Positions 3,956 to 64,000 of a stretch of 64,000 nucleotides of DNA are shown piece by piece. Under the pieces are notes generated by a model. It was not told the origin of the DNA and made no database searches. It saw only the letters and a list, made by a program, of their open reading frames with translations. Position 1 is the stretch's first letter, and the number at the start of each line of letters is the position of its first letter. Source of the stretch: Candidatus Kaiserbacteria bacterium (GTDB lineage: Bacteria > Patescibacteriota > Minisyncoccia > Phycocordibacterales > UBA2100); the NCBI GenBank assembly GCA_016432285.1, contig CP066682.1:118434-182433 (forward strand), given 5' to 3'. The translations under genes and the position numbers were made by a program.

Positions 3956-5590
3956 TTATATCTCGATAGATTCGAGGGATTTGCCTGTCCAAACTCCAAG
4001 TTTTATACGCTTTCCTTTGGAGTATTCCAGTAAGTCAGGACGTGCTTTTAAAATCATGACAAGTGATGTCGCGATTGGTTTGTTGGAGACAAGTAAAGCT
4101 TCTTCAGGTTGAGCAACAAAACAATATCCTAAGAGTTGCCCGATTGCTTTCAAATCAAGGGGCGTTATTTTGGCTTCAATAAAAGCAATACGGCGCGTTT
4201 TTGTTAAAAAGCCCACGATGTCAGGACGAATTCTGTACTGGTCGCAGTAATCAAAGACTTCGAGCAGGCTTGGGTTTCTATTTTTCAAAAATAGATTTAG
4301 ATTTCCTGCTGACGTATCAAATGTTATTACATCCTCTTCATATTTTTTGGTTAGATACTCATGCAGATAATCCGAAAGTGGCTCGTATAGAGAAGATTCA
4401 AGTACTGATTCTGCATCTTGTTCTTTCCGCAGCTTCTTTTCAGTTGGTTCTGCGCCTTTTGCAAAAGCTTCCTCTTTAAGTTTTGTGCTAATCGCATCTC
4501 TTTCTCTCATAAGAACGTCTATATCCCCATCGCCTTTCGAATCGCCCGTTAATGCAAAGTACTCTAGATTTTTTGAATGTTTCTGTAATTCGCCTAGGAA
4601 TTTGCAACCCATAGCTAGGTTTATTTGCCAGAATGCGTCGAAGTGCTTCCTAGCGGGTTCTGGTATCCGCAAATCCTGTTCTCCCGGATGATATGCTTTG
4701 ATTTTTCCGGTTGTAACTTTGGACGGTGGAAACCAATCATCTTTATCTTTAAAGACTGTGGCGACATTATGATTATGCAACTCATCGAAAAGAGACTGTT
4801 TTGAACTTATCCTGAACTTAAACATTCCATAGTATTCGGGAAAGAACTTTAGTTGATGTTCACGGCTCCAAGTTGTCGGACGAGCATTAAAAAAGTCGGT
4901 AAGATTTGCATCTCTGATGTTGGGATGTCCCCAGTCAATGGTGTGAATAGGGAGTCCGAACTCTGAACGTAAAAAATTATCTATCTCGACAGGCAGGTGC
5001 CAGTTTCGCACTAACTGAAAATATACTCTCATTCTGCCGTGTCCTTTTTCACCGTCACGGTTTAACCAACCGCCAGGAGAAGGAAAACCAGAAGTGTCTA
5101 GCAATCCATTTATAAATTCGATTTTCGATGCTTTCTCTACTTCGTGAATGGCTTTTGGTATATGGAATCTATCAAAACTCGTGTCTGGCACAAAATGTGA
5201 AAGTACCTCATCAAATACTTTTCCATAGTCTTGAAAATCCACGACCAATAAAGTCATGGTTTTGTTGCCTGTTATATCGAACTTCGCGCCTATCTCTTTG
5301 CTGAGAAACGGGATGATTACATTCTTTAATGACTCAACAGCAGATACTGGTTGGTTGTATGTTTTCTTTACTGAAGGGTCAACGGGTTTACCACAAGCAG
5401 GATTTTTGCACTTCAGGCCGTTGCCATTATTGGTTGCCAGCCAACCGCATACGGGACAATGTGCAATACCTTCCGCATATTCGTTGGCATGTGAAAATTC
5501 GATAGCGATTATTTTGCTATCGTGAAATAGGTGTCCTCTCCCTGTTATGAGCCCTAAAAAATAGGAAAATGTGGGTGTAATGGATTTCAT
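3956..5590 (-). CDS. putative restriction endonuclease: LAGLIDADG-like/zinc-ribbon N-terminal region plus C-terminal PD-(D/E)xK nuclease
   Basis: 544 aa. N-terminal FLGLITGRGHLF and FINGLLDTSGF resemble paired LAGLIDADG motifs. CPVCGWLATNNGNGLKCKNPACGKP is a Cys4 zinc ribbon. The C-terminal YRIRPDIVGF...RRIAFIEAK fits the D...(D/E)xK nuclease core. Adjacent to two MTases. Confidence 0.55.
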   Translation of the reverse strand: MKSITPTFSYFLGLITGRGHLFHDSKIIAIEFSHANEYAEGIAHCPVCGWLATNNGNGLKCKNPACGKPVDPSVKKTYNQPVSAVESLKNVIIPFLSKEIGAKFDITGNKTMTLLVVDFQDYGKVFDEVLSHFVPDTSFDRFHIPKAIHEVEKASKIEFINGLLDTSGFPSPGGWLNRDGEKGHGRMRVYFQLVRNWHLPVEIDNFLRSEFGLPIHTIDWGHPNIRDANLTDFFNARPTTWSREHQLKFFPEYYGMFKFRISSKQSLFDELHNHNVATVFKDKDDWFPPSKVTTGKIKAYHPGEQDLRIPEPARKHFDAFWQINLAMGCKFLGELQKHSKNLEYFALTGDSKGDGDIDVLMRERDAISTKLKEEAFAKGAEPTEKKLRKEQDAESVLESSLYEPLSDYLHEYLTKKYEEDVITFDTSAGNLNLFLKNRNPSLLEVFDYCDQYRIRPDIVGFLTKTRRIAFIEAKITPLDLKAIGQLLGYCFVAQPEEALLVSNKPIATSLVMILKARPDLLEYSKGKRIKLGVWTGKSLESIEI

Positions 5591-14244: not shown

Positions 14245-14325
14245 ATGTGGAGGTCGGGAGACGAAAAAGAGCGACGCGAAGCGCCGCTCTTTTCTTACCG
14301 ATGCAAAACCGCGACGTATGCTAGT

Positions 14326-15318
14326 ATGCCGCGCATGAGAGTGCTCATCTTTCCCACCGTCGTCGCCCTTTTCGCCTGCGTCGCAGCGTACCTCTGGGGC
14401 GGACTCAACGCGCTTTTCACCGTCGCCCTCCTTGCCGTGCTCGAAACCACGCTCTCCTTCGACAACGCCGTCGTCAACGCGAAGGTCTTGCAGCGCATGG
14501 AAGCCGTGTGGCAGAAACGCTTTTTGCAGTGGGGCATCCCGGTGGCGGTCTTCGGCACGCGCTTCGTGCTTCCGATTTTCATCGTCTCGTTTGCGGCCGG
14601 CCTCGGGCCGCTCGTCGTTTTGAATCTCGCGATCTTCGACCCGCTGCAATACGGACACCTCTTGGAGGGCGCGCACGTGGCGATCGCATCCTTTGGAGCC
14701 GCCTTCCTCTTTCTCGTCTCTCTCAAGTATTTCTTCAACGACCGCAAGACAGTGCACTGGATCGAGGTGATCGAAAAGTATCTCTCGCGCTGGGGCGGCG
14801 TCGAGGCGATCGAGGTGGCGCTCACGCTCATCGTGCTCCTCGTCTCCGCGCTTATCCTGCCGATGGAGGCCGCGACGATCCTCGTAGCGGGAGTCATCGG
14901 TGTCGTGCTCTTTATCGTGATCGAGGGAGTGGCGCAGGCTTTCGAGATGCAGGCCGGTGCCGACATCGCAAAAAGCTCGATCGCGCTCTTTGTGTACCTC
15001 AACGTGCTCGACGCGGCCTTCTCGCTCGACGGCGTCGTCGGTGCTTTTGCCGTCACGAGTAATCTCTTGATGATCATCGCGGGCCTCGGCATCGGCGCTC
15101 TTTATGTGCGAAGCGCAACGGTGTATCTCGTGCGCGCCAAGACACTCGAATCGCTTCCCTACCTCGAGCATGGTGCGCACTGGGCGATCTTCGGGCTCGC
15201 GATCGCGATGCTCGGCAGCCTCTTCGTGCGCGTGCCAGAGCCCTTCACCGGATTCATCGGACTCGTCTTTATCGTACTCGCGTACATTTCTTCGCGCCGC
15301 GAAATGCGAAAAGCCTAA
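14326..15318 (+). CDS. TerC-family integral membrane protein
   Basis: Multi-pass membrane protein with the LSFDNAVVNA motif typical of TerC/DUF475. The start is taken at MPRMRVLIF (14326); an in-frame upstream ATG is at 14245. Confidence 0.7.
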   Translation: MPRMRVLIFPTVVALFACVAAYLWGGLNALFTVALLAVLETTLSFDNAVVNAKVLQRMEAVWQKRFLQWGIPVAVFGTRFVLPIFIVSFAAGLGPLVVLNLAIFDPLQYGHLLEGAHVAIASFGAAFLFLVSLKYFFNDRKTVHWIEVIEKYLSRWGGVEAIEVALTLIVLLVSALILPMEAATILVAGVIGVVLFIVIEGVAQAFEMQAGADIAKSSIALFVYLNVLDAAFSLDGVVGAFAVTSNLLMIIAGLGIGALYVRSATVYLVRAKTLESLPYLEHGAHWAIFGLAIAMLGSLFVRVPEPFTGFIGLVFIVLAYISSRREMRKA

Positions 15319-15339
15319 GCGGCGTCTTTGACCCGCAGC

Positions 15340-15366
15340 GACCCGCAGGTTAAACCTGCGGGTCGG
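15340..15366. repeat. REP-like palindrome gacccgcaggttaaacctgcgggtc
   Basis: Same cccgcagg-N-cctgcggg core as the REPs flanking the RAYT gene at 62.6-63.4 kb. Intergenic, between convergent genes. Confidence 0.6.
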
Positions 15367-15375
15367 GCACTAAAA

Positions 15376-15412
15376 AACCGCTCCTTCAGTGAAGAAGCGG
15401 TTTCTTTTTTGC
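15376..15412. terminator. bidirectional rho-independent terminator
   Basis: aaaaaaccgctccttcagtgaagaagcggtttctttttt: an 11-bp stem (one mismatch) flanked by an A-run and a T-run, between the convergent TerC-family and NYN genes. Confidence 0.6.
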
Positions 15413-15429: not shown

Positions 15430-16044
15430 CTACTCCACGTCAGTCGCGCGTTCGATTTCGCCGAGTTTGTCTTGCGTTTCTGAAGGCAGCGAACCGACGC
15501 CGTTTTCCTTCGGCGGGAAGCGGCGGCCGCGCACCGGCCGGTAGTTGATGAGGTAGCGGCGCGGGTCTTCGTCGAGATCGAGGAACTGGTCGGCCGCGTC
15601 CTTCAGCTTCCCGGAAGTCGATCGGCCGAAGCTGGTTACTTCCACCTGGCAGCCGTGCTCCTTGAGGTAGTGCACGAGCGGCACGAAGTCGCCGTCGCCC
15701 GTAAAGAGGATGACGGTGTCGAGCTTTTGGGAAGCGACGATCGCGTCGACCGCCATACCGACGTCCCAGTCGGCCTTCTTGGCACCGCCGTAGAAGATTT
15801 GGAGGTCCTTGGTCTTCGGCTCAATGCCCATTTTGGTGAGTGCATCGAGGAAGGCGGTCTCCTCGCCGCTTTCGGTGGTGACCATGTAGGCTCGCGCGCG
15901 GATGAGGCGGCGGCCAGCGACGCTGTCTTTCAGCACGTTGCCGAAATTGACGCGCGCGCGGTAGAGATTTTTCGCGGTGTGATAAAGGTTTTGCGTGTCG
16001 ATGAAGACGCCGACGCGCTGTTCGGGGTGTTTGATGATTGCCAT
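15430..16044 (-). CDS. NYN-domain (LabA-like) protein
   Basis: 204 aa; VGVFIDTQNLY...ILFTGDGDFVPLV are NYN/LabA PIN-like motifs. Confidence 0.7.
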   Translation of the reverse strand: MAIIKHPEQRVGVFIDTQNLYHTAKNLYRARVNFGNVLKDSVAGRRLIRARAYMVTTESGEETAFLDALTKMGIEPKTKDLQIFYGGAKKADWDVGMAVDAIVASQKLDTVILFTGDGDFVPLVHYLKEHGCQVEVTSFGRSTSGKLKDAADQFLDLDEDPRRYLINYRPVRGRRFPPKENGVGSLPSETQDKLGEIERATDVE

Positions 16045-23922: not shown

Positions 23923-24069
23923 GGCAGGCACCTCCGCCTCCATCAGATTCCAACGGTGGCGTTTCGTCAATGCCAAAATTCATCCTCCCTTTCCGAGGTG
24001 ACACCTCGGGAGGTTGCGCAAACGAAAAAGCCGCGGGGACACCGCGGCTTTTTCCGGGAAAGGTCAAAC

Positions 24070-60771: not shown

Positions 60772-61150
60772 TTACGCCGCGCTGAAGATCTGCTCCGTCT
60801 CGACGACCTTGATGCCACCGTCGGGCCACTCATCGTCGCCGCAGTGTGAGCGGACCAGAGCTCGCGCCCGATCGAGCGCCTGATCCTTGTTATGGAGCGG
60901 CCGTCCGGTGAAGCGGTACTGCTTTACGGCGGGATCGAGATGCGGCCAATTGGCACGGAACTTCTTGAGGTCGTTCCCCTCGAGAAATGCCACACGAAAT
61001 TCGGTGGCACCGTGGTTGGGGCCGGGCGAGCGGACCACGTAGACGGCCTGGCTCGGGTAGCCCGTGTGGATGCCAGGCGTGGACGATGGCCGCCACGGCG
61101 CGGAACTGTAGGGCGTGTCGCCAAAATAGGAATAGGAATGCGCCACCATT
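60772..61150 (-). CDS. hypothetical protein
   Basis: 126 aa from MVAHSYSYFG. An AAGGAG RBS lies upstream. This is the only plausible portion of a 541-aa antisense ORF. Confidence 0.35.
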
Positions 61151-61260
61151 GCATTTCTCCTTCTGAAGAACCGGGATGGTTCTCTGTGGCCACTCTCCCA
61201 TATCTTGCGTCCGCACTCAATCAATAGTAGACTCCGCGGTGCGCTGAGGCGCATTTTTTC

Positions 61261-61677
61261 ATGGCAACGATCAACCAGCTCACACGAAAGGGACGCCGCA
61301 AGAAGACGTGGCGCACCAAAACCATCGCGCTTTCGCGCGGCTTCAACACGCTTGAAAACCGCCCGAGCTTTTACCCCGCGCCCTTCAAGCGTGGTGTCTG
61401 CTCGCGCGTGACCACCAAGACCCCGCGTAAGCCCAACTCCGCGATCCGCAAGATCGCCCGTGTCCGCCTCAGCAACGGCATGGAAATCACCGCATACATT
61501 CCGGGCGAGGGACACAATTTGCAGGAGCACTCCGTGGTCTTGGTGCGCGGCGGCCGCGTGAAAGACATCGGCCTTCGATATACCATCGTGCGCGGCAAGC
61601 TCGACACCGCCGGCATCGACAAGCGCCGCCGCGGCCGCTCGCTCTACGGAGCCAAGAAGCCGAAAGGTGAAAAATAA
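61261..61677 (+). CDS. rpsL: 30S ribosomal protein S12 (with about 13-aa N-terminal insertion)
   Basis: [46 protein letters not shown]. At 138 aa it is longer than the usual ~124. Confidence 0.9.
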
Positions 61678-61680
61678 TCT

Positions 61681-62142
61681 ATGCGACGCCCTGTCAAAAA
61701 TCGCAACCAGCCCGGCCCCGACGAGATCTACGGATCCGTGAAGGTCTCGAAGCTCATCAACTACGTGATGGAGCGTGGCAAGAAGGACACTGCACGGAAG
61801 ATCGTCTACAAGGTGATGGAGGAGTTGAAGAAGGACGGCGACCCTGTCGCACTCCTTGAGCAGGCGCTCGAGAACGCGTCTCCCACCGTGGAGGTGCGCA
61901 GCCGCCGCGTCGGCGGCGCCAACTATCAGGTACCGCGCGAGGTCAACCCAAACCGCAAGCTCGCACTCGGGCTCCGCTGGATCGTGGAGGCAGCCGAGGG
62001 CACCAAAGGTAAGCCCATGAACGAATCGCTGCTCACGGAGCTGAAGGCCGCGATCAAGAACGAGGGCGTAGCCGTCACCAAGAAAGAAACGACCCACCGC
62101 ATGGCCGAAGCCAACAAGGCCTTCGCCCACTTCGCGTGGTAG
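61681..62142 (+). CDS. rpsG: 30S ribosomal protein S7
   Basis: S7 family motifs (GKKDTARKIVY...RRVGGANYQVP). Confidence 0.9.
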   Translation: MRRPVKNRNQPGPDEIYGSVKVSKLINYVMERGKKDTARKIVYKVMEELKKDGDPVALLEQALENASPTVEVRSRRVGGANYQVPREVNPNRKLALGLRWIVEAAEGTKGKPMNESLLTELKAAIKNEGVAVTKKETTHRMAEANKAFAHFAW

Positions 62143-62173
62143 ACAAACAGATACCTTCTGGCACCATACGTGT

Positions 62174-62569
62174 ATGGGTCTAGAAAATAAGAAAAGTCTG
62201 GAGTCGGAAGCAGTTGATATCCAGAAGTTAGGGCAAGATTTCGCAGACTTGGCTGACCAGCGAAGATTTGCGGAAATCCAAATTTTGGCAAAACAAGTAA
62301 GACTCACTCCGCAACAGCTTTCTAATACTTTCGAACAGGCGATAAGAATTATGCAAAAAAAATCGCCTCTTACCCTAACCAATAGACCCATTACCATAGG
62401 TTTGACAGGAGGCGCGCTGCTCGGGATGTTAGCAGGTCAGATTGTTGTGGGAGCTATGGCTGGAGGTTCCGCAGGTGCCATCGTGGACCAGATGCAAGAA
62501 CATGCGCAGAGGGATAAACTCCAGAAACTAATAGAAGCGAAAGAATGGCTCGAAAAGAGCAATAGTTGA
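62174..62569 (+). CDS. glycine-zipper membrane protein, hypothetical (lower GC, part of insertion)
   Basis: GLTGGALLGMLAGQIVVGAMAGGSAGAIV is a glycine-zipper motif. About 45% GC. Confidence 0.4.
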   Translation: MGLENKKSLESEAVDIQKLGQDFADLADQRRFAEIQILAKQVRLTPQQLSNTFEQAIRIMQKKSPLTLTNRPITIGLTGGALLGMLAGQIVVGAMAGGSAGAIVDQMQEHAQRDKLQKLIEAKEWLEKSNS

Positions 62570-62613
62570 CGAAGCATATCCTGTAGTTCACTCAGCCTTC
62601 TTTCAAAAGTAGC

Positions 62614-62637
62614 GACCCGCAGGTTAGACCTGCGGGT
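62614..62637. repeat. REP element gacccgcaggttagacctgcgggt (3' flank of RAYT, overlaps its stop codon)
   Basis: Same palindrome family as 15340..15366 and 63321..63356. Confidence 0.65.
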
Positions 62638-63301
62638 TTGCCTCCATGTAGTACTCCCTGGCGTCCTTGAGCATATCGCGCAGCGATGGCATCCGGTCAT
62701 AGTAATCACCGAGAACTTTCTGCGGAATTTTGCTCTCCGGTCGAATAGTTCCGTTCATATCCGGCAGATTCGAATACGGGTATTTCAGTAGCTTCTCTCC
62801 GACCGTCGCGATATTACCGACGCCGCGTTTCCAGTTTCGTTCGAACAGCTCAATCGGGTTTAGAAGGACATATGGAATCACTCGCTTCAGGTAGGCGTCG
62901 TCTGTAATGTGTTTCGACTTGAAGCTGCCCGCAAACAACGGGCCAGTTCGTTCGTTTTTATTATTGAAATACATTGTGTAGCCAGTGAAAACTCGCTGCA
63001 TGAAGGTGGCGATACCTCCCGATTTGATTTGATGCAGCACGAAATGCACGTGCGTGGGCATCAAGCAGTACGCCGCTATTTCAACAATCGGATCCGCGTC
63101 GAACCTCTCGTTGGCCAGTACAGCATGAAGATGGAGATCGGCTATGTCGGAAACGCGACGACTCGCGCTACTGTTCGCGACATACGCGTGAACGAGGAAA
63201 CGTTCATAGTCAGTTTTATTTTGAAAAACAATTCTTTTGTCTACGCCGCGGGAGTAGCAGTGATACCACTCACCAGCGGGCATCGGGGGCCGAGTTGCCA
63301 T
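62624..63301 (-). mobile_element. REP-associated tyrosine transposase (RAYT, IS200/IS605 Y1-transposase-like)
   Basis: 225 aa. HuH motif CLMPTHVHFVL and a downstream catalytic Tyr region (YLKRVIPYVLLNP). Flanked on both sides by cognate REP palindromes. Lower GC. Confidence 0.8.
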
Positions 63302-63320
63302 CCATTTATCTTATCACCAA

Positions 63321-63356
63321 TCCCGCAGGTCGAACCTGCGGGTGAACCTGCGGGTT
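63321..63356. repeat. REP doublet cccgcaggtcgaacctgcgggtgaacctgcggg (5' flank of RAYT)
   Basis: One full palindrome plus a partial tandem copy of the right arm. Confidence 0.65.
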
Positions 63357-63443
63357 AAGGTCAGCGGGTTAGATCGGAACCGTCTGCGATGTCGGGTGCG
63401 GCTTCACGCTGCGTTTAGCCGCACTCCGTACCATGGGCGGCGT

Positions 63444-63548
63444 ATGGATTTTCTGCTTCTCATCGGCGGCCCTCTGGGCTTCGTGGCCATCTGCATGTTC
63501 GGGCTCTTTTTGGCGATGGTCTTCATCGAGGAGTTCTACGTGCGCTGA
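63444..63548 (+). CDS. possible 34-aa hydrophobic peptide
   Basis: MDFLLLIGGPLGFVAICMFGLFLAMVFIEEFYVR; speculative. Confidence 0.15.
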   Translation: MDFLLLIGGPLGFVAICMFGLFLAMVFIEEFYVR

Positions 63549-63607
63549 GCATCTTTGCGTTTTCGCGCCATATCGGCTACATTACTGAAACGCCTTCGGG
63601 CGTCTTT

Positions 63608-64000
63608 CTTTTAGCGTATGGCACGAGACTACCCACTCGAAAAAGTCCGCAACTTCGGCATCGTCGCGCACGTGGACGCCGGGAAGACCACCACGTCGGA
63701 GCGCATCCTCTACTACACCGGCGAGTCGCACAAAATCGGCGAGGTGCACGAGGGCAACACGGTTACCGACTGGATGGAGCAGGAGCGCGAGCGCGGCATC
63801 ACGATCACCGCCGCTGCGATCACTTGCTTCTGGAACCCCACGTACATGGGGAGCGACACTTCCTACAAGCACCGTTTCAATATCATCGATACACCCGGAC
63901 ACATCGACTTCACGTCGGAGGTGAAGCGTTCGATGCGCGTCCTCGATGGCGCAGTCGTCGTCTTCGACGGCGTCGCCGGCGTGGAGCCGCAGAGCGAGAC
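63608..64000 (+). CDS. fusA: elongation factor G (5' part; continues beyond window)
   Basis: [35 protein letters not shown]...DTPGHIDF is the G-domain. Confidence 0.9.

Follow-up and report, generated by a model that had tools for sequence, protein, structure and literature searches.

Why are rpsG and fusA, two neighbors of the str operon, separated by 1,475 nucleotides (nt) in a Candidatus Kaiserbacteria genome, and what does the DNA between them encode? We analyzed this question in a 64-kb stretch of contig CP066682.1 (64,000 nt, referred to below as the window), in which the rpsG-fusA spacer occupies positions 62143-63617. A gap of about 1.5 kb is unusual for bacteria generally. In a baseline of 80 diverse S7 loci from a metagenome scan, which reached distant relatives only (best 66% identity) and is not a sample of the lineage, the fragments carrying both genes mostly had gaps of 6-250 nt. 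We found that the spacer contains, on the minus strand, a gene for an HUH/Y1 protein of the REP-associated tyrosine transposase type (RAYT, or TnpA-REP; REP, repetitive extragenic palindrome), and that this gene lies between two copies of a perfect palindrome (Table 1). The reading that we favor, with a probability of roughly 0.58, is that the spacer harbors a self-contained RAYT/TnpA-REP-type cassette, delimited by two hairpins (62615-63373), at a site that is permissive in this lineage. A first-pass annotation, made from the DNA letters alone, had described a RAYT inserted into the operon and had ended the spacer at 63607, about 11 nt short of the fusA start codon.

The evidence supports an intact gene for a RAYT-type (TnpA-REP) HUH/Y1 enzyme. 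The open reading frame (ORF) is uninterrupted, and because the N-terminus of the family (MATRxP...GEWYHC) is conserved, the comparison indicates that translation probably starts at the ATG at 63301 and not at the internal methionine chosen in one public gene call. The sole NCBIfam match of the 225-residue protein was REP_Tyr_transpos (NF047646; 34 bits, E=2.3e-8). The Pfam domain Y1_Tnp (PF01797) was matched at E<=0.01 by 25 of 26 family members (best 5e-7), and many homologues carry a precomputed PF01797 match. In an alignment of 26 homologues the HUH motif was H84-V-H86, within 'LMPTHVHFVL', and the tyrosine motif was Y144-V-L-L-N148-P; both histidines, Y144 and N148 were invariant. Since the window protein keeps every invariant residue of this alignment, it is not decayed. 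An AlphaFold2 model built from the family alignment (predicted local distance difference test score of 90) placed Y144 in a predicted helix (residues 135-146). When the model was compared with the PDB by Foldseek, the best match was 4ER8, the complex of E. coli TnpA-REP with a REP hairpin (E=1.3e-5, probability 1.00), and the runners-up were ISHp608, ISDra2 and IS200 TnpA (probability 0.99-1.00). The pattern Y---NP is the signature of class 2 (TnpA-REP) enzymes, and IS200 transposases have Y---Q (Quentin et al. 2018, PMC6006769). By its motif, its fold and its REPtron-like layout, the RAYT-like gene fits the class-2 TnpA-Y1 kind, and the first-pass call of an intact transposase of this type was upheld.

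Table 1. Features of the rpsL-fusA region of the window (+, operon strand;., no strand assigned).
Feature	Position	Strand	Description
rpsL upstream region	61205-61260	+	TTGCGT 61205-61210, 17-nt spacer, TAGACT 61228-61233, hairpin, T6; ATG at 61261
rpsL	61261-61677	+	Pfam S12, 109 bits
rpsG	61681-62142	+	Pfam S7, 167 bits
131-residue ORF	62174-62569	+	starts 31 nt past rpsG on the same strand; glycine-rich hydrophobic segment (GLTGGALLGMLAGQIVVGAMAGGSAGAIV)
3' cognate palindrome	62615-62637	.	ACCCGCAGGT-tag-ACCTGCGGGT, perfect, 10-bp stem
RAYT-like gene	62624-63301	-	225 residues, intact, uninterrupted ORF; class-2 TnpA-Y1
Extended -10-like box	63308-63316	-	TGaTAAGAT, 6 nt upstream of the RAYT ATG
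5' cognate palindrome	63322-63342	.	CCCGCAGGT-cga-ACCTGCGGG, perfect, 9-bp stem
Extra right arm and degenerate arm	63346-63354 and 63360-63369		beside the 5' palindrome (whole feature 63322-63373)
Spacer DNA without assigned role	63374-63554	.	overlaps a 68-residue ORF (63342-63548)
fusA control region	63555-63617	+	promoter-like motif, hairpin, T-rich run; conserved in relatives
fusA	ATG at 63618	+	GTP_EFTU, 148 bits

We found three copies of the palindrome CCCGCAGGT-N3-ACCTGCGGG in the window, where 0.00 are expected; its 9-nt half-site occurs eight times (0.37 expected) and the AGGT-N3-ACCT core four times (0.29 expected). Two of the three copies flank the gene, as had been described in the first pass, and the one at the 3' end indeed encodes the last four residues (N-P-Q-V) together with the TAA stop codon (62624-62626). 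This 3' palindrome sits between the convergent 131-residue ORF and RAYT-like gene and scored as terminator-like on the minus strand. Folded as single-stranded DNA (ssDNA), it gave -12.6 kcal/mol (z = -4.9), and the 5' palindrome region, which forms two adjacent hairpins, gave -15.7 kcal/mol (z = -3.7). The third copy stands alone (CGACCCGCAGGT-taa-ACCTGCGGGTCG, 15339-15365; ssDNA fold -17.3 kcal/mol, z = -6.1) in the gap between two convergent genes at 14245-15318 (plus strand) and 15430-16044 (minus strand). Within its region (15326-15410) a partial left arm (GACCCGCAGC) precedes this solo copy and a terminator-like hairpin follows it within 15 nt.

To see how general this arrangement is, we surveyed hairpins at 85 loci of the family, comprising 83 independent loci and two contigs identical to the window. 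Perfect hairpins were present on both sides of the gene at 42 loci and on at least one side at 70. A typical locus has one perfect palindrome 20-55 nt upstream of the ATG and another overlapping or directly past the stop codon. Wherever perfect hairpins with 3-nt loops occurred on both sides (36 loci), the two shared the same 6-nt inner stem (36/36). The stems themselves vary from locus to locus (GCAGGT, GGAGGT, CAAGGT, AGAGGC, TGAGAT and others) and follow the protein tree. The family ends in a conserved P-[QE]-V, which is the left arm of the hairpin in translation; the loop supplies the stop codon. Similarity at the DNA level to the nearest relatives ends at the hairpins (on the 5' side in L003, L004 and L005), and REP-like cores were found in the spacers of relatives only where a RAYT was present. 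This family-wide pattern confirms that the REPtron-like arrangement is real and not a coincidence. Extra half-sites are often stacked beside complete hairpins, for example at L040, L076, L077, L081 and L031 and at 63346-63373 of the window, which suggests repeated cutting and joining, or slippage, at hairpin sites.

The family to which the gene belongs is large. A word-indexed protein search returned 490 homologues at E<=1e-3, of which nearly all named ones are from Patescibacteria, especially Candidatus Kaiserbacteria, and some carry the Joint Genome Institute label RayT. A profile search of 1.84 billion cluster representatives returned 732 clusters at E<=1e-30 and 9,553 at E<=1e-10. Scanning one genome per species, we identified 229 relatives and retrieved the best 80 loci, all of which were patescibacterial. 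Several metagenome-assembled genomes hold two or three divergent copies, each 42-55% identical to the window protein (same-assembly paralogues were compared with the window protein and not among themselves) and each with its own hairpin. One protein, P0070, is 54% identical and comes from the same Sequence Read Archive sample as the window (SRR12113420), so it is presumably a second paralogue of the same genome. Its palindrome (ACCGAGGTTTAACCTCGGT) differs from that of the window and reads ACCGAGGT-TTA-ACCTCGGT, with several copies upstream and one at the stop codon. A second palindrome of the AGGT-N3-ACCT type is also present in the window (CCGAGGT-gac-ACCTCGG, 23993-24009), in an intergenic position just before a terminator-like hairpin at 24024-24054; its stem resembles that of the P0070 hairpin (ACCGAGGT-tta-ACCTCGGT) and its loop differs. 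No RAYT locus lay within 500 nt of a tRNA gene. Collections of phages and plasmids gave only distant matches to the protein (<36% identity) and thus no hint of a known vector.

Several results weigh against a RAYT/TnpA-REP cassette. The window protein scored 21.4 bits against Y1_Tnp, below the cut-off of 23, and at 34 bits it missed the NF047646 equivalog cut-off of 80; it is related to the curated RAYT family but is not an equivalog. When the PDB was searched by sequence with the family profile, ISDra2 TnpA was reached at no better than E=0.4, and for this reason the fold comparison was needed. Loop orientation of paired hairpins was mixed, 20 inverted and 14 direct, unlike the regular inverted layout of REPINs. 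No conserved GT[AG]G foot was found beside the hairpins across loci; in the window, the 3' palindrome has a GTAG 2 nt away (62609-62612), and neither the 5' palindrome nor the solo copy has one. Dispersed cognate copies are scarce, with one solo copy in 64 kb and about six in 678 kb of relatives' flanks. In the DNA covered, the spread of REPs that marks RAYT systems thus appears to be weak or missing. The promoter calls made below rest on resemblance to consensus and on conservation across genomes, and a generic promoter scanner listed none of the rpsL, fusA and RAYT sites. The first-pass annotation had called the organisation classic, a description that does not suit short perfect palindromes with no conserved foot and a single solo cognate copy in 64 kb.

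We compared the locus with the systems that it most resembles. Like the E. coli TnpA-REP system or REPtron (4ER8; subclass 2.2, Quentin et al. 2018, PMC6006769), it combines the HUH/Y1 fold and the Y---NP motif with a gene placed between cognate palindromes, solo palindromes that are intergenic and next to terminators, low copy number, and divergent paralogues that each have their own palindrome type. On the other hand, the window protein is only ~14% identical to E. coli TnpA-REP and ~60 residues longer, with an extra C-terminal helical region, and its family has G-x-L-F-[AS]-G-[TS]-[FY]-K in place of the W-Q motif. The palindromes here, unlike E. coli REPs, are short and perfect, with 9-10-bp stems, 3-nt loops and no conserved GTAG foot; they sit inside the gene's promoter region and over its stop codon, and solo copies occur about once per 60-100 kb as compared to hundreds of REPs per E. 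coli genome.

By analogy with E. coli TnpA-REP and with IS200/IS608 TnpA, hairpin-directed cleavage and rejoining of single strands would most likely be the mechanism. The protein, with its HUH motif and a single catalytic tyrosine of the class-2 Y---NP type, would be an ssDNA nuclease and ligase, and the paired perfect palindromes would be recognised by it as ssDNA hairpins. It would bind such a hairpin, cut beside it through a 5'-phosphotyrosine link and rejoin the ends, and this cutting and rejoining would move or copy hairpins and occasionally the whole cassette. The downstream hairpin, which carries the last codons and the stop, would act as a terminator between the convergent genes, and the upstream hairpin would occupy the -35 position directly before the extended -10 box. 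Of 75 relatives, 66 have a TANNNT box (consensus TGnTAtAaT) whose end lies 5-9 nt upstream of the ATG, as compared to 8 at a control offset. Since the extended -10 box of the window is only 6 nt from the ATG, the gene is predicted to give a leaderless transcript, with the hairpin at the -35 region.

This placement of the hairpins would also suit a domesticated host gene, whose hairpins act mainly in cis. The protein would bind its own flanking hairpins, in autoregulation and termination, and perhaps a few others, so as to process DNA or RNA for the host, and would no longer mobilise anything. We consider this unlikely. In its favor, most family members have hairpins that extend over the promoter region and the stop codon, dispersed copies are very few, and the catalytic and invariant residues are all kept among paralogues at 42-70% identity; the family is large with its best matches confined to Patescibacteria, and some described class-2 TnpA-Y1 subclasses lack REPs and may have roles in the host (PMC6006769). 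However, the gene changes its genome position among close relatives, unlike a housekeeping gene, the half-sites duplicated beside many hairpins suggest repeated cutting and joining or slippage, and solo copies exist.

The cassette reading also holds that the site is permissive. We examined the same gap in close relatives, which we sampled independently of RAYT through S7 homologues (six relatives, S7 87-97% identical); an exact-sequence look-up of the window S7 protein returned no match. Every one of the six had an expanded spacer (370-2,800 nt) with unrelated contents. The relative with a 97% identical S7 (L165) has 765 nt containing a FabA-like gene on the opposite strand, and that at 92% (L168) has 370 nt and no called gene. 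At 91% (L169) the spacer is 1,132 nt and holds a DUF2784 gene and another gene; small ORFs lie in spacers of ~1,090 nt at 90% (L171) and ~930 nt at 89% (L172/L173), and the L178 group (87%) has 2,800 nt with four unrelated genes. The rpsG-fusA gap is thus a lineage-wide variable hotspot. An alignment with relatives had been expected to show rpsG and fusA adjacent where the segment is missing; instead they are adjacent in none of the six. The word 'inserted' therefore stands to the extent that the lineage does not conserve the segment at this site, and fails as a description of a single interruption of contiguous S12, S7 and elongation factor G (EF-G) genes.

None of the six spacers contained a RAYT or a REP-like core, which argues that the segment of the window is not ancestral. 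RAYT-like genes do occur in the rpsG-fusA spacer of at least four other genomes, L004, L033 and L034 (on the opposite strand, as in the window) and L008 (on the operon strand). If such a gene had been ancestral at this position, inherited vertically and lost or replaced in most relatives, these occurrences would be expected, together with that beside rpsL in L005, and the copies do share one major clade of the family tree. We disfavor this explanation and regard it as very improbable. In a neighbor-joining tree, which carries no support values, the spacer RAYTs do not group as sisters; for each, a homologue from another site is closer, by 6-13 identity points, and matches it in hairpin type, and the closest pairs are the window with L003 (70% identical), L008 with L011 (68%), L033 with L014 (67%) and L034 with L028 (64%). 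The orientation varies, as L008 shows, and RAYT identity does not track the distance between hosts: S7 identities of 85, 86, 84, 61 and 60% went with RAYT identities of 61, 56, 48, 60 and 53%. The absence from all six S7-chosen relatives, one with a 97% identical S7, tells against it as well. As a rough estimate that assumes independent events, an assumption that the tree favors without proving, 5 of ~82 loci in one gap is far above random placement among ~1,000 gaps per genome.

Some of these loci carry traces of other events. In L005 (4788-6687; S7 85% identical), the RAYT-like gene is found ahead of rpsL in divergent orientation; no N-terminus of EF-G was detected within 4.7 kb beyond rpsG, which means that the str cluster of this relative is rearranged. 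Two duplicated remnants of the 3' end of rpsG lie in the 2.8-kb spacer of Kaiserbacteria GW2011_GWB1_52_6 and its relatives (L178, at 3977-4101 and 4784-4822; also L180 and L181). They correspond to S7 residues ~123-153 at 71-92% identity and resemble att-type footprints, as if DNA had been inserted at the rpsG end before. In L033, at spacer positions 1831-1843 counted along the operon, 13 nt from the last codons of rpsG recur exactly. This copy is close upstream of fusA and adjoins another palindrome (GTAACGTCCGAAGGT-gaa-ACCTTCGGACGTTAC); at borderline significance (E=0.002), it may be a direct repeat bounding a 1.9-kb island. A search of the window's own spacer revealed neither a target-site duplication nor a repeated rpsG end.

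Could the unit instead be an autonomous IS200-like mini-transposon, in which hairpin, gene and hairpin transpose together and which has recently inserted at a hotspot at the 3' end of rpsG? Like IS200, IS608 and ISDra2, it shares the TnpA fold and has subterminal hairpins at both ends of a ~0.7-kb unit that encodes only a Y1 enzyme, and conservation ends at those hairpins. The nearest relatives of the spacer RAYTs lie in unrelated contexts, which implies that the unit relocates over time; there are two or three copies per genome, the loops of the hairpins are in direct orientation in 14 of 36 loci, and the GC content of the gene is systematically below that of its surroundings. The resemblance is incomplete, however. 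The enzyme has Y---NP (class 2) and not the Y---Q of IS200 (PMC6006769), is ~75 residues longer than IS200 TnpA, and has its best fold match in TnpA-REP and not in IS608 TnpA. Unlike the IS200/IS605 family, the unit has no tnpB, and its ends carry identical perfect palindromes in place of distinct imperfect left-end and right-end hairpins. No near-identical copy was present among the 229 genome matches or the best 80 loci, and the window holds a single copy; the paralogues are ~42-55% identical to the window protein, with their own hairpins, and do not form a near-identical multicopy set. Solo hairpins occur away from the gene, and no empty-site allele was found. We judge this reading to be quite improbable.

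The lower GC of the spacer had been noted in the first pass. The GC content is indeed lower in the spacer (0.50) than in the adjacent genes (~0.60) and in the whole window (0.57). However, 79 of 81 family loci have lower GC than their flanks, with a mean difference of 7.7 points, and low GC was ruled out as a sign of recent transfer.

We also analyzed the sequence before fusA. The last ~60 nt of the spacer are the only part that aligns between relatives, with or without a RAYT. In the window this part contains TTGCGT (63555-63560), a 17-nt spacer and TACATT (63578-63583), followed by the hairpin ACGCC-ttcg-GGCGT (63590-63603) and a T-rich run (63604-63612); the hairpin and T-run scored as terminator-like, and no Shine-Dalgarno sequence is visible. 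Relatives share the same design: TTGCnT, 17 nt, TAcATT, ~7 nt, CGCC-tetraloop-GGCG, a T-rich run and the ATG. The first-pass annotation had reported the hairpin, the T-run and the missing Shine-Dalgarno sequence, and these were confirmed, with the hairpin and T-run at 63590-63612, but it had read the stem as 'gacgcc' where the sequence is aACGCCttcgGGCGTctttctttt. The hairpin and T-run do not stem from the insert: relatives free of it keep them too, behind a conserved promoter-like motif, and the same design precedes rpsL. There, a 5-bp tetraloop stem (61240-61253), which RNAfold stretches to 7 pairs (61238-61255), follows the motif, and again there is no Shine-Dalgarno sequence. The pattern TTGCNT-N17-TANNNT had only two matches in the window, one upstream of rpsL and one upstream of fusA. 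As RNA the fusA hairpin is modest, at -8.8 kcal/mol no better than shuffled sequence, and its stem shows no covariation among relatives.

These features suggest that fusA has a dedicated promoter, whose transcript would open with a short 5' hairpin and a U-rich leader lacking a Shine-Dalgarno sequence. A promoter and leader of its own would explain why the spacer tolerates turnover. With this conserved control region immediately upstream of fusA, rpsL-rpsG and fusA would be separate units, and the DNA between them could turn over freely. The location is best explained by residence in a lineage-specific variable islet between separately promoted units, and not by disruption of an operon. For practical purposes, the str 'operon' is not one unit in this lineage, and a variable rpsG-fusA gap should not be taken as an assembly error in synteny-based annotation or binning. 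The upstream design that rpsL and fusA share, in which a putative promoter is followed by a 5' hairpin and a U-run, may be the usual promoter and leader of highly expressed genes in the lineage; it is a testable candidate for how such genes are expressed without a Shine-Dalgarno sequence.

The genomes of Patescibacteria are very small and streamlined, and mobile elements are thought to be few in them. A large RAYT-like family with a hairpin for each gene and several copies per genome runs contrary to that picture. We tentatively raise a further possibility, that the family is an undescribed RAYT-like subclass specific to Patescibacteria, in which the hairpins are fused to promoter and stop codon and codiversifying cassettes, two or three orthogonal pairs per genome, repeatedly home to the rpsG-fusA gap, which would have become an integration hotspot across the lineage, splitting the str operon and leaving fusA with its own promoter. 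In a literature search for RAYT or TnpA-REP in Patescibacteria or the candidate phyla radiation, we did not find a description of the family, and the sole joint mention was an archaeal locus. Among the described TnpA-Y1 groups, subclass 2.6, class 3 ('atypical secondary structures') and subclass 2.1 (TIRYT) share the class-2-type tyrosine motif. Compared by description only, subclass 2.1 also agrees in length (median 238 residues), and subclass 2.6 and class 3 agree in having flanking structures without GT[AG]G; subclass 2.1, unlike the present family, has no flanking hairpins. These groups come from Bacteroidetes, Proteobacteria, Planctomycetes and other cultured phyla, and Patescibacteria are unmentioned (PMC6006769). 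The fusion of hairpins to expression signals, the orthogonal pairs within one small genome and the recurrent use of the rpsG-fusA gap are mildly interesting features of the family, which also supplies naturally matched proteins and hairpins with which changes in the hairpin specificity of HUH enzymes can be studied.

The rest of the spacer lies outside the hairpin-bounded unit. The glycine-zipper gene of the first-pass annotation does exist as an ORF of 131 codons, with a GC content of 0.45, but its similarities are sub-threshold (DUF1269, 17.8 bits with a cut-off of 26.9; YiaD glycine zipper, E=0.004). It corresponds to the public record 'hypothetical protein HYS26_01015 [Candidatus Kaiserbacteria bacterium]', and a database search matched only this protein itself, so that it is genome-specific. 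The DNA between the 5' hairpins and the fusA control region had no similarity to the spacers of relatives. The 68-residue ORF that overlaps it had no Pfam or NCBIfam match, and tblastn matched it only in L001 and L002, the contigs identical to the window; openness is its sole support, which leaves it unsupported as a gene, and a shorter frame from the ATG at 63444 would give a hydrophobic peptide. An Rfam search of 61000-64000 at E<=1 returned no family. On a distant metagenome contig (L094, 305-961) a remote Y1-like match, 24% identical to the window protein, lies ~1.2 kb upstream of rpsL. Finally, the S12 protein encoded by rpsL in this clade has an insertion of ~13 residues after its N-terminal KGR segment relative to typical bacterial S12; the insertion is conserved in related loci, and the Pfam S12 match begins only at residue 34.

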